The position numbers were made by a program, and so were the translations under genes. From positions 1-63,105 of the IMG/VR virus record IMGVR_UViG_3300036831_000039: a stretch of 63,105 bases of DNA. One strand, 5' to 3'. How positions within the stretch are numbered: the stretch's first letter is position 1; the number at the start of each line of letters is the position of its first letter. The notes beneath the pieces are model-generated. The model ran no database searches. It was not told the DNA's origin and worked only from the letters and a program-made list of their open reading frames with translations. The DNA is from a virus. Lineage: Duplodnaviria; Caudoviricetes. Shown here one piece after another: positions 13,258-50,088 of the stretch.

Positions 13258-14838
13258 ATGAAAAAATTTATACTTACATTATTTGTTATAGTTTTTCCAC
13301 TTTCACTCCAAGCTACCACATTTGGTAAGTGGCAGGGATACGCCGAGAGGGGCGGATCACAGGTTAGTGTGTCAGGATTTCTAAGTAGCACTAAGGTTCA
13401 ACAGTCATTTCCAGGAGCTACTGAAACCGTATATCTTACCGGAACAACCACTATTGCTACTATCTACAGTGATGCCGGAGTAACTCTTAAAAGTAATCCA
13501 TTTACAGTAGACTCTACTGGATTTGGATATTTTTACATAGATAATTCTATTTCGTTCGATATTAAATTTAGCGGTACAGGTATTTCTGTTCCATTTACGC
13601 TATCCAATATTACTCTGTCTAACGGAGTCCTTCCCGCAGTTCCGTCTATTATAGATTATGGGGCTATAAATGATGGAAGAACCCTAACAGGAACAGTAAA
13701 TAGCGGTATTGCTACCCTTAATTTAACTTCTGGATCATTTACTAGTGCAGACATAGGAAGGTCTTTTACTGTTCTAGGCGGTGCTGGAGTTGGAGTAGGC
13801 CTAACCGGGACCATTCTATCAATTGGCTCATCCACCTCTGCTACTATTTCTTCAACACCATCTGCTTCAGTATCAAATGCTATGACCTATATAGCTACGG
13901 ATAGCACGTCTGCCATCCAAACTGCACTGGATAATAGCAAAGCTGTAACTATTCCAGCAGGAGCGTTTGGATTCACTCGGCTAAGGCTTCATTATGGCCA
14001 AAGCATTAATGGAGCTGGTATAGGAAGTTCAACACTTCTACGAATTGGACTAGGCGCAGGGGGCCCTGCGATTTCTATGGTTGGCGGAAGTGATATAGCA
14101 CAAGAGCTTAAACTATCTAATTTTTCAGTGCGTTGTGGTCAGATAGGAACAGGACTTGATGGAATTAATCTAGGGTATGAAGTAGCAGGCGGCGGATTTG
14201 CGTTCGGATCTATTATCGAAAATGTTAAAGTCTGGAGTGCGTCCGGATTTGCGTTTAATCTAGCATCCAATGCTGGAATTGTCCGCAATATATGGGCAGA
14301 AAATCAAAACTCTGGCTCACAATCTACTGCTGGTGGATTCAAAGTTACAGTAACAAATTTATATGCGGATATTCTTGGTGTTGAAGGATTTTATCCAGCA
14401 GGCCCATATATATTGAATGCCTCAGGCTCATCAACGTACAAAAATATTCAATCTCAGCTTCAGGGTACTTATGCTACTACTGATGTTGTAAGTATAGGCG
14501 TAACTGGCACTGTTATAGATGGGCTATACCTTTTTGGTGGAGGCACGTATCGGGATGTAGTGCGCATTCTTGGAGGCCAGCAGTTCACAGAGCTTCGACG
14601 ATTAAACGTAGACCCTACGCACCCGGCTTATACTAATTTGGTTAATGATATTCCTAATGGTCGAACATATACTTCGGCAGTAGCTCACTTATCACGCTAT
14701 GTTCAGGCTGCGGATGGTTCTCCAGACACAGCCGCATATCCAGTGTTTGCTGATAATGCAAGTGCATTGGCCGCAGGATATATTAGTGGGGGAATTTATC
14801 GTACATCAACAGGTGAACTTCGTATTGTAGTTCCATAA
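13258..14838 (+). CDS. Tailspike/beta-helix depolymerase-like protein with N-terminal signal peptide
   Basis: ATIYSD..SNPFT head-binding motif; DYGA..DG and DSTSAIQTALD..VTIPAG pectate-lyase-3-like motifs; starts MKKFILTLFVIVFPLSLQA. Confidence 0.7.
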   Translation: MKKFILTLFVIVFPLSLQATTFGKWQGYAERGGSQVSVSGFLSSTKVQQSFPGATETVYLTGTTTIATIYSDAGVTLKSNPFTVDSTGFGYFYIDNSISFDIKFSGTGISVPFTLSNITLSNGVLPAVPSIIDYGAINDGRTLTGTVNSGIATLNLTSGSFTSADIGRSFTVLGGAGVGVGLTGTILSIGSSTSATISSTPSASVSNAMTYIATDSTSAIQTALDNSKAVTIPAGAFGFTRLRLHYGQSINGAGIGSSTLLRIGLGAGGPAISMVGGSDIAQELKLSNFSVRCGQIGTGLDGINLGYEVAGGGFAFGSIIENVKVWSASGFAFNLASNAGIVRNIWAENQNSGSQSTAGGFKVTVTNLYADILGVEGFYPAGPYILNASGSSTYKNIQSQLQGTYATTDVVSIGVTGTVIDGLYLFGGGTYRDVVRILGGQQFTELRRLNVDPTHPAYTNLVNDIPNGRTYTSAVAHLSRYVQAADGSPDTAAYPVFADNASALAAGYISGGIYRTSTGELRIVVP

Positions 14839-26075: not shown

Positions 26076-26263
26076 CCCAGGCTAAAAGATAAATGTAAAT
26101 GTATGTGTAAAAACAGGTGATAAATTAGTATTACTATTACAGTATACATTACTCGGTCTATTATTTGATCTATAGGGTCAGTAGGCTTTCCAAGCTCTAT
26201 CCAACAAAAGAAGTATAGGACACTTATTATTATTAGTGGTATCAGGATTGGGATTATTGCCAT
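26066..26263 (-). CDS. Small membrane protein
   Basis: Two hydrophobic segments; TAATG overlap with pol. Confidence 0.5.
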   Translation of the reverse strand: MAIIPILIPLIIISVLYFFCWIELGKPTDPIDQIIDRVMYTVIVILIYHLFLHIHLHLSFSLGWK

Positions 26264-29073
26264 TATTTCAAATCTCCCCAAGTTTTAGCTATGTTGCCCT
26301 TAGCCCCCAAGGGTGCTAGTAAGTTTGCCGCATGGCTCATTTCGTACTCTACATGACATTGTAAAAGGGGTGCAATAGACTCTTCAGCCTCAAATATAAG
26401 TTCATCATGCACAGGTACTAATGGCTCACAGTATCCAAACTGTCTAACCTCCGGAATGGAATGGTCATAAACATTCTTCATCCCGACCTTTAGTATATCT
26501 CCAGCAGTACCTTGCACGGGCTGATTGCCAATCTGACGTAGAGCTTCTTCTCGGATACCGTCCAGCGGTGACCACACAGCCGGAAAGTAACGAATGCGTC
26601 CGAACATAGTACGTACCATTCCAGTTTGGCGGGCCTCCGCGTATACATCCGCCATGTAGCATTTAACTCCTGGATAGGCTTCAAACCACGCAGCAATGAA
26701 ATCCATAGCCTCTTGGCGAGTAATCTTAATGCCTAGTAGGGCTAGTTCATTCATGAGTCTTGTAGCCTGCATTCCGTAGAAAATTCCAAAATTGACTGTC
26801 TTAGCTGCTACACGCTGGTCAGAGGTAATTAGATCCATTGATAGCTTGTACACTAGCGCTGCGGTGGCTCGATGAATGTCCTTTCCACTACGGAAAATCT
26901 CAATCATGTTCTCATCCCTACTGAGATGAGCGCCCACCCGCAGTTCCACCTGATCTAGATCAACCGATACCAGTACGCAGCCCGGAGGGGCTATAAAGCC
27001 CTTACGAACGCGTTTGCCAAGTGGGGAGCGGGTAGGAATATTCTGAAGATTGATGTTCCTAGAGGCTAATCTGCCAGACGCAGTATTAGTGTATAAAAGT
27101 TGAGTATGGATTCGACAGTTCTTGTCTGCTAGTCGCTGAATTGGGAGTACGTAGGTTCCCAACATTTTGGCGTGTTCACGATAATCCAATATCACGTCAA
27201 TGATAGGAGCTACAGCAGCGTCGAACGCATACTTAATCTTTAATGACTCCATTGACTTAGCATCAGTGGAGGGTTTTTCAGTCTTCTTAGAGAACTTGGG
27301 AGGGTCTAGTTTAAGTCGTCCATATAGTAGTTCTGAGACTTGATCAGGAGAGCCTGCGTTAACATTGTAGCCTACTAGGGAAGATAGCCTATCCTGAATG
27401 ACTACTAGTTCGGTTTCTAGTTCTTTCTGGAATCCTGAAAAGTAGTCTAGATCCACCAACATTCCAACCGATTGCATTCGGTCTAGTATTGGTAAGATTC
27501 CTCGGTCTATGTCATACACACGCTCTAGCCCCTGCTCCTTCAGCATGGGCATTATAACGTTGAAATCTCTTAATGTAGCGTCTGCGTCTCGGCCAGCATA
27601 TTCAATAACAGCTTTCGTATCTTTAACGTCTCGGAGCGTAGTTCGTGGAAGTTTGCCAATAATATCTTCCACTGGACGGCGAATTTCTGGATCAATGTTA
27701 TACCAACGCTTGCGTAGCGGATGGCTGGCTTCATCCTCGTCAACGTCTTCTCCCTCTTCGTCATCCTCACTGCCGATAGAGGTTATCTCCTCCATCATCT
27801 TTTTGAGGCGTCTAGAAATCGACCAGGGACGCTTAAGCTTTCCTTCCTCATCATAGATGACTGGTGGTGCAGGCCAATTAGCCCCATCTACACATGCGGG
27901 ACACCTAACAGTCGACTTAAGAGGTACATCGGCCAATACAACACACGCACAATCGTCGGATGTCTTAAGAAGCTGGCCCTTTTTGCCACGCTTCCCGATC
28001 TTGCCAGTGCCACTACACGAAGAGCATTTATCATCAGCTAATTTACCTTTACGCTTTGCTAGGCCTGGAAGGTTACCTTTACCCTCACATATTCTACAGA
28101 CTTTCTGAATCCACGCCGTAGTAAGGTATTGATTAACTTTGCTAACCTCCGCAGAGTGGATAAGGGCCGGGTAGCTGCCCATTTCCATTTGATTGAGACG
28201 GTATGATAAAGGCTTTAGAGCTTTAGGAGTTAGCCCCAATAGGTAGGAGCCGATCATAGTATCATGTATATCGGCTTTGTAGGTAGATATTCCTAGCGCT
28301 CTAATGATGGGTAGATCGTGAAGCATATTGTGCCCCACGATCATTTTCCCATCAAATACTGATGAATAGGTGGTAGGCTCAGTAATTACTGAAGCTTTAC
28401 CCACTTGCTGAGTTACTTGTATGCTGTAGGGATCATCTACCCATCCCTCAGTATCTAGTGCTATCGGGAGGGTAGGGTCTAGGGTAAGTAGGGTTTGTGG
28501 GGATTCTTTAGTGTATAATGGGGTAGGATATTTGTCGGGAGGTACAGTGGACTCTATTTCGCCGCGTAGGAGCTTGCCTAATGACCTGAAATCATCCCAT
28601 ACAAGCTTTCCGTAACGATCTGGCTGACGGATACCGGCCGCTGGATGGTACACTGGTAGTATTTTACAGCCTAATTCCTTAGCTACTGGATCTATTGGGT
28701 CAAAAGGTAATCCATGAATATATTCCATCTTCACAGATTTACCAAGAAAAAACTGAGCGGCAATTTTACCAACAGCTACAATTATGTATGGGGAAGCTCT
28801 ATAAAGCTCCTCATAGAGTTCTGGGCGGTCGCGCTCTATCTCTTGATCGGTTGGATTGCGGTCATCTTCATCTGTGCGCCATTTGACAATGTTGGTGATG
28901 AAGACTTCGTTTCTATAAATACCCGCACAGCGGATAAGGTAATTGTTAAGTTCATAACCTGAAGCTCCAACGAAGGGTAATCCTTGATCGGCTTCGCTAG
29001 CTCCAGGCCCTTCTCCAACAATAGCAATTAGCGCCGGAGTAGGCCCATATCCTATTACCTTATTACCTATCAT
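26263..29073 (-). CDS. polA: Family A DNA polymerase with N-terminal family-4 UDG-like domain, 3'-5' exonuclease and Zn-finger insert
   Basis: GEGPG/PFVG/YHPAA (UDG); DTEG, HNMLHD, YAGRD (exo); TASGRLAS, NLQNIP, DLDQVELR, KTVNFGIFYG, VHDE (PolA). Confidence 0.95.
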   Translation of the reverse strand: MIGNKVIGYGPTPALIAIVGEGPGASEADQGLPFVGASGYELNNYLIRCAGIYRNEVFITNIVKWRTDEDDRNPTDQEIERDRPELYEELYRASPYIIVAVGKIAAQFFLGKSVKMEYIHGLPFDPIDPVAKELGCKILPVYHPAAGIRQPDRYGKLVWDDFRSLGKLLRGEIESTVPPDKYPTPLYTKESPQTLLTLDPTLPIALDTEGWVDDPYSIQVTQQVGKASVITEPTTYSSVFDGKMIVGHNMLHDLPIIRALGISTYKADIHDTMIGSYLLGLTPKALKPLSYRLNQMEMGSYPALIHSAEVSKVNQYLTTAWIQKVCRICEGKGNLPGLAKRKGKLADDKCSSCSGTGKIGKRGKKGQLLKTSDDCACVVLADVPLKSTVRCPACVDGANWPAPPVIYDEEGKLKRPWSISRRLKKMMEEITSIGSEDDEEGEDVDEDEASHPLRKRWYNIDPEIRRPVEDIIGKLPRTTLRDVKDTKAVIEYAGRDADATLRDFNVIMPMLKEQGLERVYDIDRGILPILDRMQSVGMLVDLDYFSGFQKELETELVVIQDRLSSLVGYNVNAGSPDQVSELLYGRLKLDPPKFSKKTEKPSTDAKSMESLKIKYAFDAAVAPIIDVILDYREHAKMLGTYVLPIQRLADKNCRIHTQLLYTNTASGRLASRNINLQNIPTRSPLGKRVRKGFIAPPGCVLVSVDLDQVELRVGAHLSRDENMIEIFRSGKDIHRATAALVYKLSMDLITSDQRVAAKTVNFGIFYGMQATRLMNELALLGIKITRQEAMDFIAAWFEAYPGVKCYMADVYAEARQTGMVRTMFGRIRYFPAVWSPLDGIREEALRQIGNQPVQGTAGDILKVGMKNVYDHSIPEVRQFGYCEPLVPVHDELIFEAEESIAPLLQCHVEYEMSHAANLLAPLGAKGNIAKTWGDLK

Positions 29074-35342: not shown

Positions 35343-37205
35343 TTATATAATCATCGCATCTGGTACTGCATCAGTGTATTTAATTGCCGATAAAAACCAT
35401 CTCTGAAACATTTTCCGATTATACTCTAGGACATTTTCTATGTTGGAATCAAGAATAAATCCCTCACACCAGTCTAGCTCACTTCGCATTCCCCTCCATA
35501 ATGATTGCACTAATTCTTGTACCATCATAAATGTTCCGTAGTCTTTGTCAGCCTCACACCGCGCCCGAAATACGGCGTTTTGTGAATTAGAGTATGGAAG
35601 CTTGGGGACAATCACATATCGGCAATAATCGTGTGGTAGATCTACACCAGTTGAGAAATTTGGCCCGACCAACACACACGGGCCAGTTCTACGTTTAAGC
35701 TCTGATAATGCCGCCGGAAGCTCCTGAGCCGATTTTGGAGCAATCATGAGGTCTTTAAACATTGAATACTTCAGGAAAATTTCCTGTAGCCGATACGAAA
35801 CAGTGGGAATAATTCCCTTCCGATCCAAACGCCTAGCTATGATCTGGTCCGTTCGCTGGACGATACGTCGAATATCCTCTTCCGAACTCTCATAGTTCAT
35901 TTTGGTGGTAGGCATTACATAGATAGGCCTACGCCAAGTTGGAAAGGGGCAATCGTATTCAAAGTAATCTACGTCAGATATGTCTAGCCCGATTTGTTCG
36001 AGAATCTTGGGGCGAATGGTAGCTGATACTATTAGGATTTTATTAGCACCATTTATGAGAAGTTCTCGAAAATCAGAAGGATATATTGGGGTAAATTCTT
36101 TACCGCCTTTGGGAGTATCCTCTATTACCCAATTATCATTAACCCATAAACTCATTATGTCTAACTTGAGCTTGAGCCGTTTTAGCCCTATTAGCGCCTG
36201 TGCGTCCCCCATTCGGGTAGCAGTTTCGATGCGGTTAGCCATCCATCCACGAAGAGTAGTGGCCTTTACAGCCCATTCCGAGATTGTCATAGTTCTATAC
36301 TTAGGCAATCTCAGTAAGACTTTCATTTCATATTCGGATAGCTCAAACTTCACCGCGTCACTTAGGGCCTGTGGAACAGAATGTCCTTCGTCCCATACCA
36401 CAGTAGAGAATTGCCCTAGGCCTTCTGAGTGTAGATTAGAGGATATATTTAACGAGTAATTAGTTATGACCCGTTGTTTCCATTTTGAAGCTTTAATGCG
36501 GTCGTAATACTGACATCCACCCTCAGTATATAGTTCACACTCTCGCTTAGTTATTATTCCTATCTGACACGGCGCATGCGCAACGCATCGTTCATTCCTA
36601 TCTGATTTGCTCTCTGATTTTCTCTTATCTGCTGCTCGAACATAATGTCCATTACTCGTGCATCCATTTGCTGTTGTAGGATTGCTTGAATTTCTGCTAC
36701 ATTTACAGGATTCTCTTGGGGCTGTAGTGGCTCTGGAGGAATTGCTGGATCTATCACCGGAAAGTTCATGAAATCGTCCGGTGGATTTACTACCCACTGA
36801 AATGGTAGGTCCTGAGCTACTATTCTCCCTCGAAATTCCCTCCCCAGGATTTCCCCAGGCTTGTAATTCGCGGGTAAACTTGAGTCGCTCTTCAAGTGAG
36901 ATATGCTCCCACTCACAAGAGTAGTTACTGCGCCCTTTGATGTCGAAGAGGCCCGTTTCTTCCGACCACTCATGATTATATTGCTCCTGTAAAAATTTGG
37001 AACTAGTATCTATAAGCATACGACGGTTGGATATAAGCATCTCTCCCATTACTAGCATTGTTTTACCAAAGCCGGGAGGAGCATCGTGCACTACGATTCG
37101 CTTCTTAGAAGCTAATGATGCCTGTACAGCCTCAAACTGTCCACTACGCCATTCTGTAAATCGAAGTGGAGCCCCATATAGGTATGGAGGTGGGTAATTA
37201 TTCAT
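35343..37205 (-). CDS. DinG/Rad3-like SF2 helicase with Fe-S region and ~100-aa insert
   Basis: APPGFGKT, KGRSNYSC, CQYY, TNYS, DEGH, SAT, GVDLP, KLPY. Confidence 0.9.
   Translation of the reverse strand: MNNYPPPYLYGAPLRFTEWRSGQFEAVQASLASKKRIVVHDAPPGFGKTMLVMGEMLISNRRMLIDTSSKFLQEQYNHEWSEETGLFDIKGRSNYSCEWEHISLEERLKFTRELQAWGNPGEGISRENSSSGPTISVGSKSTGRFHELSGDRSSNSSRATTAPRESCKCSRNSSNPTTANGCTSNGHYVRAADKRKSESKSDRNERCVAHAPCQIGIITKRECELYTEGGCQYYDRIKASKWKQRVITNYSLNISSNLHSEGLGQFSTVVWDEGHSVPQALSDAVKFELSEYEMKVLLRLPKYRTMTISEWAVKATTLRGWMANRIETATRMGDAQALIGLKRLKLKLDIMSLWVNDNWVIEDTPKGGKEFTPIYPSDFRELLINGANKILIVSATIRPKILEQIGLDISDVDYFEYDCPFPTWRRPIYVMPTTKMNYESSEEDIRRIVQRTDQIIARRLDRKGIIPTVSYRLQEIFLKYSMFKDLMIAPKSAQELPAALSELKRRTGPCVLVGPNFSTGVDLPHDYCRYVIVPKLPYSNSQNAVFRARCEADKDYGTFMMVQELVQSLWRGMRSELDWCEGFILDSNIENVLEYNRKMFQRWFLSAIKYTDAVPDAMII
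36560..36973 (-). CDS. Candidate overlapping gene nested in the helicase (alternative frame; start uncertain)
   Basis: Open for 137 codons; the C-terminal ~100 aa read as protein-like sequence with genome-typical codons. Confidence 0.45.
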   Translation of the reverse strand: MSGRKKRASSTSKGAVTTLVSGSISHLKSDSSLPANYKPGEILGREFRGRIVAQDLPFQWVVNPPDDFMNFPVIDPAIPPEPLQPQENPVNVAEIQAILQQQMDARVMDIMFEQQIRENQRANQIGMNDALRMRRVR

Positions 37206-37518
37206 TATTACTATACGGACTGCTTATACTAGCGTCTAGTTTTTGTAATTGAGCCTTAGCTATTGGTATATACATCCGGTCATATTCCAAACATTTTGCT
37301 GATTCTTTCAGCGCAAAATAAACATTTATTCTAGATTTAACCTCATGCTCATGTTCTTTTGCAATATAAGCCTCAGAATCCATTAATCCAGTAGTAATTG
37401 ATAAGCCAAATATTATTAAGAAACAGACAATACCTAAGAAAATGGCAGGAACTATACCTCTATGTATACAATAAAGAATTACTAAAATTAGCGCAAACAA
37501 CGTCATAATGTCAATCAT
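37198..37518 (-). CDS. Membrane protein
   Basis: Two N-terminal hydrophobic segments. Confidence 0.55.
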   Translation of the reverse strand: MIDIMTLFALILVILYCIHRGIVPAIFLGIVCFLIIFGLSITTGLMDSEAYIAKEHEHEVKSRINVYFALKESAKCLEYDRMYIPIAKAQLQKLDASISSPYSNNE

Positions 37519-43769: not shown

Positions 43770-43996
43770 ACCAACTCCTTCCACCTAAGAATGTCTGCAA
43801 AATTTAGCGCTGATTTAGGGGATAGTTTCATAGGCCTAATCTCGTTATAGGTAATTGAGTTAGGACCGCTACGGGCATATTTTGCGTAAACTGTGGCTGC
43901 TTCCTCATCTACTACGATCGCATACTTCCCGAAAGGCCTATCCGAAGAGTAAGCTTGAAAGTAATGTCCGTTGGGGTCTATGAATATACGGGCCAT
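43766..43996 (-). CDS. Hypothetical protein
   Basis: ORF overlapping the end of the amidotransferase gene. Confidence 0.5.
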   Translation of the reverse strand: MARIFIDPNGHYFQAYSSDRPFGKYAIVVDEEAATVYAKYARSGPNSITYNEIRPMKLSPKSALNFADILRWKELV

Positions 43997-45510
43997 TCAA
44001 GCTCATCTCCTTCTGGAGGCCCTAGGCGATTCTCTTTGTCGGTTAGAAAGCCAATTGCGGCCTGTGTAGCTTCATCAGGATCTTGTGCGGTAGTAGTATT
44101 GAGGACCACTAACGATGTAGATTCCTCACCAGAATGTGCTTTGTTACCTTCTAGAGCTAGTACGAGTTCGGACTCTGGAATGCAATAACAACTACACTGA
44201 TTGCACCAAATATTGCTAGTAAGTTCTCCCTTAGTGTGGATGTCCGTGGAAAGGAAGTGGCCACAGTCTCGACACATTTTAACTGTTAACAACTTGCATG
44301 CTTCGTCTTGTTTTCCCTGGCACTGAACAAGGCTATTGAACAAGCACATGCCCCAAATGTGATACTTCAGCGGATCATTACACCTCGGGCAAATGGTAGT
44401 AAGTTCTACCTCTCCAAAAGTTTCGGAGTTGGAATCAGCATTTCGCAGCATGACACTCCGAAGCCGCTCAATCGGAACCAGATTATCCGGAACAGGATCA
44501 CTAGTAAGCTTTTCCCATTCAGCTTCCATTGCTTCAAAGTGTGCTGTAGTTGGAACTAGCTTACTCTTACGACGAAGAGCTTTCTTTTGGGCTTTAGAGA
44601 GCTTATGGATTCCGTCTGCAGAAGGGGTAGAGAAATTTCCATGAACTACATTGCTAGTAGTTCCTTTGATTGCATTCTGACGTTCAGTTCTGCGGCGCTC
44701 TAACCAACTTTTCTCTGTTTCACTAAGTCCTAGAGTGTTCCATTCATGAGTGTTACCAGAGGATCTAGAACTAGACCACGTAGACATACCACGGAAATTC
44801 TTACTAGCTTCTTTTTCCTCAAACACTTCCCCGTTTTCAATTTTGTACCATGTATCAGGATTGATAATGAGCGATCTCATATCCATACCGAGTAGGTTAG
44901 CCGCTTTGTCAAGCGCTCTCCATTCGGATGCCCAAACAACTAAATTCTGACGTTCTCCGTCAGCTTTAGGCTTGCTACGGTAGAAATTGGCTACCGAAAT
45001 ATTGCCGCCGTTAGTCTTAAAAAACCTAATAGACTTATAATCGTTTGATTTACTTGCGTAGAACACTACCCCATATCCGGATAGCTCCAGTAGTGGAAGA
45101 TCCTCGTTAATATGAGCAAAGAGGTGTTGAGAATCCACTTCAAACGTTCTCCCATACTTTTCATTCATTTCTTTATAGTTACCTACTGAGCCATTGTGCA
45201 CGCCGATAATATTTCCCACCTCAAACGGATGAGCATTAGGAATGCTAACTTCTCCTACTGTGGCAGCCCTGGTATGACCGAGAATCTTAGGATATACCGA
45301 TATTTCCCTAAGTACATGACTGCCCTTTTCAGAGATTTTGCCAAGCCCCTTAATTACATCAATTTTTCCGGTAGGATCAAATAATGCTACTCCGAAGGAA
45401 TCCTTACCTCGGCCTTCCATTTCAGAAGCAAGGGTTACTCCTAGGATGCCTGCTTCGTATTCGGTAAGGTTATTATCGTCTGTACACTGAAACCCGAAAA
45501 TTCCACACAT
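43978..45510 (-). CDS. Class II (Ntn) glutamine amidotransferase with Cys-rich C-terminal extension
   Basis: MCGIFG, RG.DSFG, GHTRAAT.G..NAHPF, HNG, VDS. Confidence 0.92.
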   Translation of the reverse strand: MCGIFGFQCTDDNNLTEYEAGILGVTLASEMEGRGKDSFGVALFDPTGKIDVIKGLGKISEKGSHVLREISVYPKILGHTRAATVGEVSIPNAHPFEVGNIIGVHNGSVGNYKEMNEKYGRTFEVDSQHLFAHINEDLPLLELSGYGVVFYASKSNDYKSIRFFKTNGGNISVANFYRSKPKADGERQNLVVWASEWRALDKAANLLGMDMRSLIINPDTWYKIENGEVFEEKEASKNFRGMSTWSSSRSSGNTHEWNTLGLSETEKSWLERRRTERQNAIKGTTSNVVHGNFSTPSADGIHKLSKAQKKALRRKSKLVPTTAHFEAMEAEWEKLTSDPVPDNLVPIERLRSVMLRNADSNSETFGEVELTTICPRCNDPLKYHIWGMCLFNSLVQCQGKQDEACKLLTVKMCRDCGHFLSTDIHTKGELTSNIWCNQCSCYCIPESELVLALEGNKAHSGEESTSLVVLNTTTAQDPDEATQAAIGFLTDKENRLGPPEGDELEWPVYS

Positions 45511-46968
45511 TTAAATTGTCTCCAAATAAAGATTTTCAGTAATTAATGCTTGAGGTTGAATTTTATTTCGATAGTTACTCATTAAAGTAGCTGGAAGGAT
45601 CTTATCTCCAAAGGATGCATTGGATCGAATGTAATCTGATAATTCCAGCTTATTGCGAAAGTAGTCTATTGATTGTTTAGATACCAATTGACCCATTAGA
45701 AATAAGCCGGAGGTAATATTCTCTTTGCCCTGTGTTTCTTTCGCTTCGGATTTGTTTAATAGATCCTGTAGCTTTGAGTAGCTAATAGATTTAATGCTAT
45801 CGAATAGCTCTAGTAGGAGCTTAACCCATCCATAAATCTCGTTGAAATCTACCGCACCATGATGGAGCCGAAATTCTACAGTGCCTCTAAGAAAGTATGT
45901 GTGGAGATTTACTGCCGAATAGCGGACTTCATTGCGATTTCCACGGATACGCCCATAATGATCTCGCTTGGAACGTAAATATTCATTAGGGTTTCCAAGT
46001 GCTGCATCTCCGTATACTTTCTTGATAATGGCAGGTTTAAGAGACTTAGTATCAGGCTTAATACCTTTTAGAATACCCTCGCTAAGATATTCGCCACACG
46101 GCCTACAGAACGCACTATTGATCCTGGATGAGTGTACTGAGCCAAACAGAACAGGTTCTAGCCGGCTATACACAGCTACAAACCGTTGTATTTCTTGATA
46201 ACCTAAATCTCTACAATCAATATGGACATGTAGGCCACATGAAGTATTGACTTTGGCGTCAGCAGCGATTAACCCGTCGCAGATATCCTTGAGTTCATTA
46301 TATAACGCATCTCCGCAAGCGGGCGTGGTGTTGATTTCAAATGATCTATTGGTGTTACTTACAATAGATCCGTCATGTACCACGCTACAGCCCCATTTAG
46401 ATAATGCTGCATTCAGTTCTTTAGCATTACCATACTCGCTTACCTCAATTTCCACTGCTGCAAATCGTTTTGAGGAATTGTGGATAAATCCCTTCGGACT
46501 TAGGCAAGTTCTCTGCATACCGTTGGATATAAGTAGAGATGAAGTGGCGTCCGTAAATGATGGATCTGGAAAAGTCTTTACTTCCGGATAAGCAAAGTTT
46601 ACTTCGCCAATCCTATCAGCTTCTCTCCACTGGATGGGCTTCCAGCAACAAGAGTGGAAGTAAGTCTTACAACAATTTTTGCACCGGGTACTATTACTTC
46701 CACCTTGTGGACAGCATCCGCAGATATAGTCTTTTATTGGAAATGTATTACCACAACTAGAGCAATATTTATGTTCTTGTTCTTTATCCTTAGGAGATGT
46801 TCCGAGAGTACGATTAGGATAAAGTTTCTTACAGCATCGCACACAACTAGCTATCTCAGGGTTAGCACCACGGGCTGGCTTACAGCAAGTGTTATTGCTA
46901 TTGCTGCAACGACGTGTGTAATTACTATTAAACTCATTACCGCAAATATAACATCTAGTAGGTTTCAT
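45511..46968 (-). CDS. Putative amidoligase (glutamine-synthetase-like COOH-NH2 ligase) with Cys-rich N-terminus
   Basis: AVEIE, DGSI, FEINT, NTSCGLHVHI, RYSAVNL, TVEFRLHHG. Confidence 0.88.
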   Translation of the reverse strand: MKPTRCYICGNEFNSNYTRRCSNSNNTCCKPARGANPEIASCVRCCKKLYPNRTLGTSPKDKEQEHKYCSSCGNTFPIKDYICGCCPQGGSNSTRCKNCCKTYFHSCCWKPIQWREADRIGEVNFAYPEVKTFPDPSFTDATSSLLISNGMQRTCLSPKGFIHNSSKRFAAVEIEVSEYGNAKELNAALSKWGCSVVHDGSIVSNTNRSFEINTTPACGDALYNELKDICDGLIAADAKVNTSCGLHVHIDCRDLGYQEIQRFVAVYSRLEPVLFGSVHSSRINSAFCRPCGEYLSEGILKGIKPDTKSLKPAIIKKVYGDAALGNPNEYLRSKRDHYGRIRGNRNEVRYSAVNLHTYFLRGTVEFRLHHGAVDFNEIYGWVKLLLELFDSIKSISYSKLQDLLNKSEAKETQGKENITSGLFLMGQLVSKQSIDYFRNKLELSDYIRSNASFGDKILPATLMSNYRNKIQPQALITENLYLETI

Positions 46969-47552
46969 TTCTGTCGCCTTTTCATTGCAGCAGTGCTTAA
47001 TCTGAGTCCTTCCGCTTCGTTATAGTACGGGTTAACAGAATCTATAATTTCTCTGATATCTGAAGGACCATAAAGAGTTTCAAGGTAGGTTTTACCATTA
47101 CCAATCTCTGGAGCTTCCTTGCGTGAGTTACAGCAAAACCTGCACATAGTCATGCGGTGGCTTACATGGTTGCACATTGCCCCGAATACCTTGAAACTAA
47201 TAAACCTATGATTGCAGCTAAAACAAGAAAACGATTTAACTTTCCAAGCGGCGTCTACTAGTTTCCAGGGAATGGCCCATTTTGGGAACTTAATGATAGT
47301 TCCACCACAATTACATGCAAAAGGCACGGGCTTAGGACTATTGGTAATTATCCGGCACTTAACCTTCTGGTACTTCTTGCCACAATCTCTGCATACGCCA
47401 CGAATGTTCGACGGAAGAGCTCCCCAATACTTATTAATCCACTTATACGTAGACCTAGTATAAGGATCACCTAACACAAAACGTCTGCGTTCGATGTAAC
47501 TAAATGGAGCTTGTGGGTTAATATATTTATTTACATAGTTATGTTCCGTCAT
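46965..47552 (-). CDS. Basic multi-Zn-finger protein
   Basis: CRDC, CNC, CFSC, CRFCC. Confidence 0.6.
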   Translation of the reverse strand: MTEHNYVNKYINPQAPFSYIERRRFVLGDPYTRSTYKWINKYWGALPSNIRGVCRDCGKKYQKVKCRIITNSPKPVPFACNCGGTIIKFPKWAIPWKLVDAAWKVKSFSCFSCNHRFISFKVFGAMCNHVSHRMTMCRFCCNSRKEAPEIGNGKTYLETLYGPSDIREIIDSVNPYYNEAEGLRLSTAAMKRRQK

Positions 47553-47575
47553 AGCACTCCTTTTACCTATCCTTT

Positions 47576-47794
47576 TTAACTATTGTATAGTTCTTTGAGT
47601 GTTTCATTAAGATAACATAAAATTTTCCTGTCAGCCGTTGACAAATGTATTGCTAATCTACAATCTTCAGTGCTAACCCAATTAGCATGCAATATCGAGT
47701 TAAGAACCTGTGACAGGTGGGAAGCCTCTTTCGCTGTCATAGTAATTTGCACGTCTAGTGGAAGTGGAGTAGGCGGAACCCAACCGCTTTTCAT
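47576..47794 (-). CDS. Hypothetical protein
   Basis: ATGA overlap; PPTP..VQITMT..EA..L resembles 53136-53348. Confidence 0.5.
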   Translation of the reverse strand: MKSGWVPPTPLPLDVQITMTAKEASHLSQVLNSILHANWVSTEDCRLAIHLSTADRKILCYLNETLKELYNS

Positions 47795-48528
47795 TGTAGT
47801 TCTCTCATAATCTGGTCTGTGTAGACTTCCACGGAGGGTCCTTGGTCGAGCCCAGGAGCCGTGTTAACCTCTAGCACGTAAGCGTTATTCCCGGGCACGA
47901 TTCCGAGGTCTACCGCTCCGAAATCTAGCCCTAACGCGGCCACTGCTGACTTCGCCAATTCTCGCCGATCCTGACGAATTCTGACAGCTAACGAATAGTC
48001 AATCTTCCACCCGCTTTCGTATGATCGTATCCATTCGTGTGGATTTGGTATGCGAGGAACTTTGATGCCTGCATGAATAGACTTGCCTTTGAATACGTGG
48101 ATTCGCATTTCCCGAATAAGAGGAAGCTTTTGTGTATAGAAGTCTCTTCCTCCGCCCGTTAATAGATCTCGCCCCCCTTGATGATGTAGTGAACGTCCTA
48201 TACTCCCCGGGGCAGGATAATCATACATTTCTGGAACAGGGATACCCTTACTCGCTAAAGTTAGTAATTCTTCTTTTTTACTACCTACAATATAGGGGTT
48301 CAAAATTTTAAGTCTAATTGGAAATAGGACAAGATTATGCGGATCTTTAAAAGACCCCCAATTAACCCATAGGTCATTAGTTTTAAGCCTATTTGCAAAT
48401 CTATTTAAAGAGGTATTAGAAAGACGTGTAGAGGTTTTGTATGCTCTCACTCCCCTTGCTCTAAGGGAGTCTCGAAGTCTAATTGCGCTCTCTGATGCTC
48501 TGGGACACCATATGTGAACTCGTGACAA
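47791..48528 (-). CDS. ATP-grasp ligase (RimK/YheCD-like)
   Basis: EMRIHVF, ALGLDFGAVD, VLEVNTAPG; GAGGAG RBS. Confidence 0.9.
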   Translation of the reverse strand: MSRVHIWCPRASESAIRLRDSLRARGVRAYKTSTRLSNTSLNRFANRLKTNDLWVNWGSFKDPHNLVLFPIRLKILNPYIVGSKKEELLTLASKGIPVPEMYDYPAPGSIGRSLHHQGGRDLLTGGGRDFYTQKLPLIREMRIHVFKGKSIHAGIKVPRIPNPHEWIRSYESGWKIDYSLAVRIRQDRRELAKSAVAALGLDFGAVDLGIVPGNNAYVLEVNTAPGLDQGPSVEVYTDQIMRELQ

Positions 48529-48542
48529 GACTTAGGCTCCTC

Positions 48543-48926
48543 TTATAACTTCAGTTTTAGAATTTTCTTTTCTTCATCAGTAAGCTTATCTAGTGCTGTC
48601 TTCTTTTTGCGTAGAAATTCCTTGTGGCTCTTTAAGTTCTCTTTCCTAGCTTTATCAGCGGCAACATGATCTCTCCACCACATTTGAAGTTCTAGGGATC
48701 GTCTAGCAATATTAATAGGAGACTTTTTTAGCAGAGAGCAGAGTTCAGCAACTGCATTATCCAGTGCTTCATTACTGTATTTGTTATAGGCACGATTATC
48801 ATAGCCATTCTTAAAGTTTTCGGAATTAACTGGAATTCCTGTTTTTACTTCATCAATTAGCCGGAAAACTTGTGATAACAGCCGTTCGTCTCTTGTAGCT
48901 TCTAGATAATCACCATTACAGGGCAT
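48543..48926 (-). CDS. Hypothetical protein (likely start MPCNGDYL)
   Basis: GGAGGT RBS before ATG 48926; WWRDH..AD..R and ALDKLT.EEK motifs. Confidence 0.6.
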   Translation of the reverse strand: MPCNGDYLEATRDERLLSQVFRLIDEVKTGIPVNSENFKNGYDNRAYNKYSNEALDNAVAELCSLLKKSPINIARRSLELQMWWRDHVAADKARKENLKSHKEFLRKKKTALDKLTDEEKKILKLKL

Positions 48927-48930
48927 ATTT

Positions 48931-50088
48931 CTACATACCTCCACAGCTAGGATTGTTACATCCTGGCACTTTACACACACCGCTAAGAATGCTCTCTGCA
49001 TGCCTACGAAACCCTTTACCGTCAATTCCAGCCTCTTTCCATTCTTCAGGAGTAAGTGGTTCAGCAGGATTTGAAGTTAAATGTGATAGAAAGGAAATTG
49101 ACTTGTGGTTAAATGGTATATGACTCAAAACCCATTCAGCAGTGCTATTATTCATGTTATTAATGGCAAATCTCGCCTTATCAGAGAGTTGTTCGGGAGG
49201 AGTTCCGTAGTTGATAGCAAAGTACAGTGCTGTACGGTATAGATTAAACATAAGACTAACGTATACCGGATTGCTGAGGACTGAGCCAGGAAGTACCCTA
49301 TACTCGACTCCGTGTGTATGGTGGCGATAATCCCTTTTTTCTAGGGCAGTTGCGCCCACAGTAATTGTCGGAACTGGATATTCTCGGTATCTGAACTCTC
49401 CCGCACGGCCATAGGCTTTCCGCCTTAAAATCTCCATCTTAGGCTCATCGGGAGATACCAGTACCCAGGTACAGCCTACCAGAATGTCTGCCCAACGGAC
49501 CAAATCATAGGCTACTTTATCAGTCTTGAGCGATGGATGGGTGAGGTGTAGGTGACCACCAGTTGTCCGCATCCGTTCCGATAGATAAGACGGATCACCA
49601 CAATCATCATAAATATTCAGACTTGGAGAGCAGCCCAGCCGCTTAACATCGTCCGGGGCAGCTTCTTGATCTTTTTTAGGGATGGAATACACAGCAGGCA
49701 TTTCAATAGTAAGCTTAGAGCTACCCACTAGTGATTTAGCGGTAGACAGTGCCACTCCTAGTCTATTCATAATTACATCTAGGCAATAGTGAGGCGGGAT
49801 GCACAACTCCATAGCGTATCCATCACCGTGGAAATCGCTTCTAATCGAGGAGTGTAATTCAGTGGGAAAGCTAACTTTAGGATTATATGGCTCACGTTCC
49901 TGGGGGAAACCTACCTCATGTGGCCAAATGGTTTTGAGCCTATGAGATTTTGGATCACGATGCTTGAAAAGCATTTCCGTATCCATTCCTAGAAGTACCA
50001 AACTATCTGAAACTGTCTGGTTTTGTGAAGAGAAAATGTTAAGGGCAAACTCATCATCAAACGGCATTTTAATCTTATCTTCTGTCAT
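48931..50088 (-). CDS. phiEco32-like COOH-NH2 ligase type 2
   Basis: LGMDTE, DG.A.EL, LGCSP, RTTGGHLH, RR.AYG.AGEFR, GVEYRVL. Confidence 0.88.
   Translation of the reverse strand: MTEDKIKMPFDDEFALNIFSSQNQTVSDSLVLLGMDTEMLFKHRDPKSHRLKTIWPHEVGFPQEREPYNPKVSFPTELHSSIRSDFHGDGYAMELCIPPHYCLDVIMNRLGVALSTAKSLVGSSKLTIEMPAVYSIPKKDQEAAPDDVKRLGCSPSLNIYDDCGDPSYLSERMRTTGGHLHLTHPSLKTDKVAYDLVRWADILVGCTWVLVSPDEPKMEILRRKAYGRAGEFRYREYPVPTITVGATALEKRDYRHHTHGVEYRVLPGSVLSNPVYVSLMFNLYRTALYFAINYGTPPEQLSDKARFAINNMNNSTAEWVLSHIPFNHKSISFLSHLTSNPAEPLTPEEWKEAGIDGKGFRRHAESILSGVCKVPGCNNPSCGGM

Follow-up and report, generated by a model that had tools for sequence, protein, structure and literature searches.

The virus record IMGVR_UViG_3300036831_000039 (Duplodnaviria; Caudoviricetes) was analysed over its whole length of 63,105 bp, referred to in the following as the window; its completeness is estimated at 97% by CheckV. 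It carries a gene for an iron-sulfur (Fe-S) helicase of the XPD/Rad3/DinG type, in which the first two of the four cysteines predicted to bind the cluster are separated by an insert of about 81 codons, encountered at this site in none of the homologues compared. Within the insert the DNA has the codon usage of the phage's own genes in the +1 frame, and the helicase frame is open as well. On balance, the most probable reading is that the insert is a fossil fragment of coding sequence and that translation in the helicase frame now turns it into a disordered loop, which the protein tolerates. In the following, the helicase frame is called frame A, the +1 frame relative to it frame B and the third frame, frame C; all the features of the locus lie on the minus strand.

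The helicase and its iron-sulfur module

By homology and predicted fold, the 620-aa open reading frame (ORF) of frame A is a Fe-S helicase of the XPD/Rad3/DinG type. This assignment is made because the ORF matches the Pfam family Helicase_C_2 (E=1.7e-11, 44.9 bits, the cutoff being 25.3) and, across residues 19-609, PHROG 2488, annotated as DNA helicase (1.9e-65); because a profile built from the helicase and 51 homologues matches, in the PDB, DinG at 6.8e-33 and XPD at 7e-32; and because its AlphaFold2 (AF2) model, with a mean predicted local distance difference test value (pLDDT) of 85 and a predicted template modelling score (pTM) of 0.81, retrieves by Foldseek the structures of DinG (6fwr, 7.4e-24) and XPD (9p55, 1.6e-22).

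Two alignments were used to evaluate conservation: A1, made of the 15 closest sequences, and A2, made of 52 sequences, i.e. the helicase and its 51 homologues. In A1, the Walker A and DExH residues P43, G45, G47, K48, D272 and E273 are invariant and H275 is nearly so; in A2, D272 and E273 remain invariant, with P43, G45, G47 and K48 close to it. Between Walker A and Walker B, the residues C97, C213, C223 and C231 (Cys1 to Cys4) line up with cysteines of the homologues as four ligands of a putative cluster. They are the cysteines read in the helicase frame in an earlier, preliminary description of the locus (NYSC, followed by APC, EC and CQYY), and all of them are found on the minus strand. Cys2 is invariant among the 15 closest sequences, but in A2 a gap or another residue takes its place in 22 of the 51 homologues.

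A search of 5.8 billion protein clusters gave, as best homologues, proteins of about 520 aa with 38-40% identity; no closer relative was detected by DNA search, in viral contigs or in metagenome contigs. The full 620-aa ORF was not seen in the search of near-length proteins. Public gene calls split the helicase into a 352-aa C-terminal piece, starting from a GTG at residue 269 (P0001), and the 137-aa +1 ORF (P0058).

Inteins occur in this family at other sites. The homologues P0039 and P0042 carry about 340 extra residues each in the P-loop, inserted behind the position equivalent to query residue 47; P0035 carries 263 after residue 525; and the viral locus L020 (1501-3927) has a P-loop insert containing the Intein_splicing and HNH_3 domains. 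None of these inteins lies within the Cys1-Cys2 loop.

Extent and uniqueness of the insert

Alignment to the homologues, suggested in the preliminary description as the way to define the insert, shows the extra residues between Cys1 and Cys4; the insert proper corresponds to helicase residues 122-202. The insert is real, and shorter than the roughly 100 aa first proposed: it consists of about 81 codons, or 243 nt, and reaches 258 nt at most when the duplicated motifs at the junctions are included. The positions of the insert and of the other features of the locus are reported in Table 1.

Table 1. Features of the helicase locus. Positions refer to the window; the last column gives the basis of each feature or its relation to the reading frames.
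Feature	Positions	Strand	Remarks
XPD/Rad3/DinG-type Fe-S helicase ORF, 620 aa (frame A), by homology and fold	35343..37205	-	ORF, Pfam, PHROG, profile, fold
Cys1 codon, C97 in NYSC	36915..36917	-	invariant in A1 (15), at least 90% conserved in A2 (52)
Cys2-Cys4 of the Fe-S module	36513..36569	-	C213 (APC) 36567-36569; C223 (EC) 36537-36539; C231 (CQYY) 36513-36515
Lineage-specific insert, helicase residues 122-202	36600..36842	-	Ser/Arg-rich in frame A, gene-like in frame B
Frame B (+1) ORF, 137 aa	36560..36973	-	stop included in coordinates; public gene call P0058
AGGAG, 10 nt 5' of the frame-B ATG (36971-36973)	36984..36988	-	overlaps codons of the conserved LQxQ helicase motif
Tandem 11-nt repeat, 10/11 identical, 5' edge of insert	36841..36862	-	G4 runs 36853-36856 and 36842-36845; heptamer GGGAAAT 36849-36855
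Purine run GGGGAGGG	36838-36845	-	read from sequence
Purine run GAGGGAG	36825-36831	-	read from sequence
First 12-nt copy of TCAGATAGGAAT, 3' edge of insert	36594..36605	-	SDRN in frame A, QIG in frame B
Second 12-nt copy of TCAGATAGGAAT, native helicase sequence	36556..36567	-	QIG after Cys2 in frame A; contains frame-B stop TAG
Four extra codons (IITK), between Cys2 and Cys3	36546..36557	-	missing from 14/14 aligned homologues (A1)

The effect of the insert on the spacing of the ligands is large. 115 residues lie between Cys1 and Cys2, and 133 residues span Cys1 to Cys4, compared with 19-46 (median 27, counted on the columns of A2) in 51/51 homologues. In addition, 80 loci were retrieved from viral contigs with the family alignment and read as DNA, without relying on gene calls; 63 of them matched both helicase halves, and the other 17, having no N-terminal match, were left uncounted. 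The two halves are always in one frame (63/63), and the extrapolated Cys1-Cys2 distance amounts to about 0-49 codons in 62 of the 63 loci. The 63rd, L020, is long owing to its P-loop intein with HNH endonuclease, and its own Cys1-Cys2 spacer measures 28 residues. A long spacer at the Cys1-Cys2 site was thus found in none of the 51 homologues and in none of the 63 viral loci.

In the AF2 model, residues 122-202 are the sole segment with pLDDT below 50 and are devoid of secondary structure; most of the rest exceeds 90. The G+C content of the insert is 44.0%, compared with 43.3% for the genome, and gives no sign of a foreign composition; no other copy of the insert was found within the same genome.

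Short repeats are present at both edges. The purine runs GGGGAGGG and GAGGGAG near the start of the insert, and the 12-bp repeat TCAGATAGGAAT at its end, are located where the preliminary description had placed them. TCAGATAGGAAT has two exact copies in the window, separated by 38 nt, and the only further match with one mismatch is at 14139; by our own estimate, an exact 12-mer pair within 50 nt would be found by chance at a given 400-nt place with a probability of about 0.001. The four extra IITK codons come directly after the second copy and contain stops in the other two frames, two successive TAA in frame B and one TAA in frame C.

Coding properties of the two frames

Codon tables were derived from the 35 other long ORFs of the window, and the codon score was defined as the log2 ratio of in-frame to off-frame frequencies. 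The 993 80-codon windows of these 35 genes score 30.9±10.2 in their true frames, where all are open; the corresponding +1 off-frames score -37.2±13.1 (maximum 10.7), with 2/993 open, and the +2 off-frames -52.8±16.8 (maximum -1.3), with 0/993 open. Frame B of the insert, open over 80 codons, scores 30.5. This value matches the true-frame mean, is reached by 0/993 of the +1 windows and agrees with the genome-typical codons attributed to the overlapping frame in the preliminary description. The openness of both frames described there was also found, and frame B encodes the peptide quoted there for the overlapping frame. Frame A of the insert scores 12.9, corresponding to the 4.6th percentile of true frames; frame C scores -86 and contains many stops. 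In a sliding profile, the switch from A to B takes place at about 36845-36830, and the return from B to A at about 36620-36595.

The dependence of each frame on the other was evaluated by resampling, in which the synonymous codons were redrawn 20000 times while the protein encoded by one frame was held. With the frame-A protein held, frame B is expected to score 8.6±4.9; the observed value of 31.3 was reached in 0/20000 trials, so that the frame-B signal cannot be explained as a consequence of the helicase frame. When the frame-B protein was held instead, the score expected for frame A, with stops disregarded, was 14.7±4.7, and 11.8 is observed. Since frame A is at or below this expectation, it has no coding signal of its own in the insert, only a lack of stops. 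This lack is itself rare: 5.07 frame-A stops are expected for the frame-B protein, and frame A was open in 0.115% of the 20000 trials.

A related bias is found in the third codon position. T is used as third base by 0/20 of the frame-B codons that precede codons starting with AA, AG or GA, compared with 17/59 of the others (Fisher P=0.0035); ahead of such codons, the phage's other genes use it at a rate of 43.6% (n=3114). Because frame A is open with P=0.00115, given the frame-B protein, and because of this avoidance of T, frame A must in all likelihood be read.

Upstream of the insert, helicase residues 78-121 have a frame-A codon score of 4.3, compared with 10.5±3.5 expected for the protein, and frame B is mildly positive in the sliding profile at about 36935-36965 (window 36935-36973, minus strand), an effect too weak to be interpreted.

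Origin of the insert

According to the explanation considered here as the probable one, a coding fragment of about 243 nt, with the phage's own composition, would have entered the Cys1-Cys2 loop out of its native frame, which would now be +1 relative to the helicase. The preferred origin would be a single out-of-frame capture at a break, whose repair may have left short duplications at both junctions, namely the tandem 11-nt repeat on one side and, on the other, the 12-nt copy of a motif located 38 nt downstream. As the phage presumably needs its helicase, only a stop-free fragment would survive, and the rare stop-free pattern could be due to this survivorship. The ribosome would then read straight through the insert in frame A, giving rise to one 620-aa chain with an 81-residue disordered loop, rich in Ser, Arg, Thr and Asn, on the surface of the Fe-S module. 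Such a loop would be tolerated because its openness would matter, and not its sequence. The 137-codon +1 ORF would be a by-product, and frame B, unless co-opted, a young fossil.

An alternative and less likely origin would be an older in-frame insertion domain, followed by two compensating indels near its ends. The edges of the insert are indeed close to homopolymers (G4 at 36842-36845, A4 at 36618-36621); this route needs two mutations, both near the insert ends, via a non-functional intermediate.

Several observations weigh against the capture of a fragment that is now idle. A random coding fragment would be stop-free in frame A in only about 1/1000 cases according to the resampling, and in about 1e-5 (0.564^20, our own estimate) according to the genome-wide rates of T in third position; the capture model can therefore hold only with strong survivorship. 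No decay is seen in frame B, whose 137 codons contain no stop and whose codon score is average, and selection acting on it would explain this equally well. It is opened by an ATG with a plausible ribosome-binding site. The insert bears no foreign mark, its G+C content equalling that of the genome, and the donor sequence was not found in any search. To read the junction duplications as scars of break repair is an interpretation, and the whole case is built on a single genome from a single sample. Which frame is translated, how the insert originated and that frame B is idle are things which we infer.

The frame-B ORF as a candidate gene

The preliminary description had suggested, among other possibilities, a small gene nested in the helicase. 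In a true case of dual coding the 137-codon +1 ORF, or a shorter one starting from the ATG at 36770-36772, would encode a separate small protein, made of a basic N-terminus, a Pro-rich middle and a 45-residue helix, and the helicase frame would stay open as a spacer. We regard this explanation as unlikely, although it deserves serious weight. A more specific version, in which a functional small-protein gene would be wholly contained within the Fe-S loop of a replication-type helicase, the embedded frame being the primary one and the host frame a mere spacer, kept free of stops through synonymous choices at specific sites, appears slightly less likely still.

The coding statistics are favorable to a gene, as frame B has the full codon usage of the phage's genes and is intact for 137 codons; moreover, the site-specific avoidance of T in third position is what would be expected from joint selection on both frames. 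This part of the suggestion stands. The signal, however, ends at the edges of the insert. Since the insert has no start or stop of its own at these edges, it resembles an internal fragment of a coding sequence, not a complete gene.

The signals found outside the insert are ambiguous. The spacing between AGGAG, a Shine-Dalgarno (SD) core, and the ATG ending at 36973 is like that of other genes of this phage, about half of which show such a core. Upstream of the insert, however, frame B scores as predicted by the helicase protein (P=0.18-0.23). When this protein was held and synonymous codons were resampled, the probability that frame B is open upstream was 0.15, that of an SD core combined with an ATG 0.35, and the joint probability about 0.05, so that the first 41 codons, the SD core and the ATG are all compatible with chance. 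The stop codon TAG (36560-36562) likewise sits in native helicase sequence, past Cys2. Promoter-like sites are not above chance, 2 being found where 2.5±1.8 are expected, and no terminator was detected (0). The record's gene calls do take the +1 ORF over the helicase frame, reporting P0058 and a truncated P0001, and the gene would have to originate through the same rare stop-free event required by the capture of a fossil fragment.

The predicted protein, which has no cysteine, contains one long helix at residues 92-136, modelled by AF2 from the single sequence with confidence (pLDDT 79-94). This helix is the only structure predicted, and a globular fold is not (pTM 0.28; pLDDT 0.43 for the model of the ESM Atlas). 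The search of the alternative frame for relatives, recommended in the preliminary description, gave none. Only the protein itself was retrieved from near-length clusters and by phmmer from 1.84 billion representatives; PHROGs gave no match, and Pfam only DUF6742 at E=0.0088, below the cutoff. The best score in the ESM Atlas, 0.77, falls in a range often reached by shuffled proteins; tblastn against 50,697 phage records gave one match at E=2; and six-frame scans of viral, metagenome and genome contigs for exact 8-mers found none.

Recoding, splicing and assembly errors

The preliminary description had also considered the product of a programmed frameshift and a bypassed or spliced segment. In such a recoding scheme, ribosomes would shift by +1 near the G4 run at 36842-36845 into frame B and would return to frame A at about 36600, by a -1 slip or a 38-nt hop, so that the mature helicase would carry the frame-B peptide; alternatively, the +1 shift alone would produce a truncated N-terminal isoform, ending at the frame-B stop. 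Both forms are considered very unlikely, mainly on the following grounds.

At the 5' edge, the GGG G run would allow tRNA-Gly to re-pair in +1, and the purine-rich, SD-like runs flank it; the run is a possible +1 site only. The sole heptamer of the X XXY YYZ type, GGGAAAT (36849-36855), is in the phase of frame A and leads into frame C, which is filled with stops, and no canonical heptamer is present at the B to A end. Folding energies are like those of shuffled sequences, the z values versus 200 shuffles each being 0.27 for the 5' and 0.93 for the 3' edge, at both of which a stimulatory RNA structure was looked for; the whole insert shows no folding excess either (z=0.25). The tandem 11-nt repeat was also evaluated as a hop or frameshift device and discarded, as a jump of 11 nt would lead from frame A to frame C instead of B.

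At the 3' edge, CAG ATA GGA is read in frame B in the first of the two 12-nt copies and in frame A in the second, and the distance of 38 nt between them, equal to 2 modulo 3, suits a move from B to A; a small hairpin is located within the gap. The GGA codons, however, are matched for the B to A move only, and the take-off codon is followed by AUG and not by a stop. This hop, the sole productive one, would moreover delete Cys2. Multiple shifts within one gene are known from Euplotes and mitochondria, as far as described in the sections of PMC5009743 considered here. In any recoding scheme that leaves frame A unread, its openness would be a coincidence of about 0.1%, or 1/1000.

As for splicing, only two chance-level matches to Rfam families were obtained at E<=10, none indicating a group I or group II intron or a ribozyme, and no intein family was detected in the helicase by Pfam, which does detect the intein of L020. 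Neither a bypassed or spliced segment nor a programmed frameshift is supported.

Two compensating 1-nt assembly errors at homopolymers, named in the preliminary description as a finding that would dismiss the case, could have shifted an ordinary in-frame insertion domain to +1. The edges of the frame-B signal do lie near the G4 and A4 runs, and the sequence is present in one soil-metagenome DNA run only (X1), the probable source of the record, no RNA run being listed as containing it. Nevertheless, a Logan contig of this run (63006 nt) has 0 differences and 0 gaps relative to window positions 36000-37400, at a k-mer depth of 20.3, the Logan assembly being independent of that of the record, yet probably built from the same data, and the comparison being made between contigs, not raw reads. 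Long intact ORFs, up to 1312 codons, are found elsewhere in the 63-kb record, and an open frame A would again have to be a 0.1% coincidence. The assembly appears sound, and an artefact is the least probable of the explanations discussed, to be given hardly any weight. The remaining probability is assigned to something not considered here.

Comparison with known systems

The helicase shares with the XPD/Rad3/DinG family, including PHROG 2488, the Helicase_C_2 domain, the P-loop, the DEGH box, the four Cys ligands and the predicted fold. It differs in its Cys1-Cys2 segment of 81 residues, which is predicted to be disordered and whose DNA is coding-like in another frame. In the DinG protein of E. 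coli, too, the first two cysteines are separated by a long spacer.

Inteins of the same helicase family resemble the insert in that these mobile insertions keep the host frame open, in the P-loop of P0039, P0042 and L020 and after residue 525 in P0035. Here, no Pfam intein is found, the site is another one and the 81 aa are well below the approximately 340 aa of P0039 and P0042.

In T4 gene 60, ribosomes bypass a dispensable gap between matched take-off and landing codons, with a stop after the take-off codon; dnaX and prfB are programmed frameshifts. The locus described here shares with these systems matched GGA codons in identical 12-nt contexts, 38 nt apart, and, at the other edge, SD-like purine runs with a G4 run. 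It differs from them in that the take-off codon is not followed by a stop, a conserved cysteine is encoded within the gap, no significant structure is found and the zero frame is open.

A precedent for an embedded phage gene is Rz1 of lambda, which is embedded in the +1 frame of Rz and belongs to a kind of gene that gene callers tend to miss, according to the parts of PMC6139136 relied upon here. As far as these parts go, the two cases have in common a complete +1 ORF wholly within a longer phage gene, a Pro-rich and little-structured product and a locus mishandled by gene callers; Rz and Rz1 are, however, conserved across many phages and both products were shown to be necessary, whereas the present ORF comes from a single genome and has no relatives. 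In contrast to Rz1, it is the alternative frame that has the normal codon usage here, and its product, having no cysteine, is not an o-spanin lipoprotein.

If frame B is idle, the locus would illustrate, in a clean natural form, the absorption of foreign or displaced coding DNA as a disordered loop of an essential enzyme, and would indicate that about 80 arbitrary residues can be accommodated between Cys1 and Cys2 in helicases of the XPD/DinG type. An expressed frame B would be a rare case among double-stranded DNA phages of a gene lying inside a replication enzyme. It would also represent a new route by which an insertion can be maintained in an essential gene: the insertion would carry its own gene and be translationally transparent to the host gene, in an intein-like role without splicing. 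Coming from one genome, the case is better called a documented curiosity than a discovery. It also holds a warning for annotation, as the gene caller, guided by codon statistics, reported the +1 ORF and shortened the helicase to 352 aa.

Other features of the genome

The Logan contig is circularly permuted relative to the window, position 36000 of the window corresponding to contig position 59492. This permutation points to a genome that is probably circular or terminally redundant, even though the record lists it as linear. Elsewhere in the genome, positions 26263-29073 encode a family-A-type DNA polymerase (PHROG 17, 2.7e-120). A block of genes on the minus strand (43978-50088) has PHROG matches to a glutamine amidotransferase (43978-45510), an amidoligase (45511-46968) and a COOH-NH2 ligase (48931-50088), and on the basis of these matches might represent a modification module.

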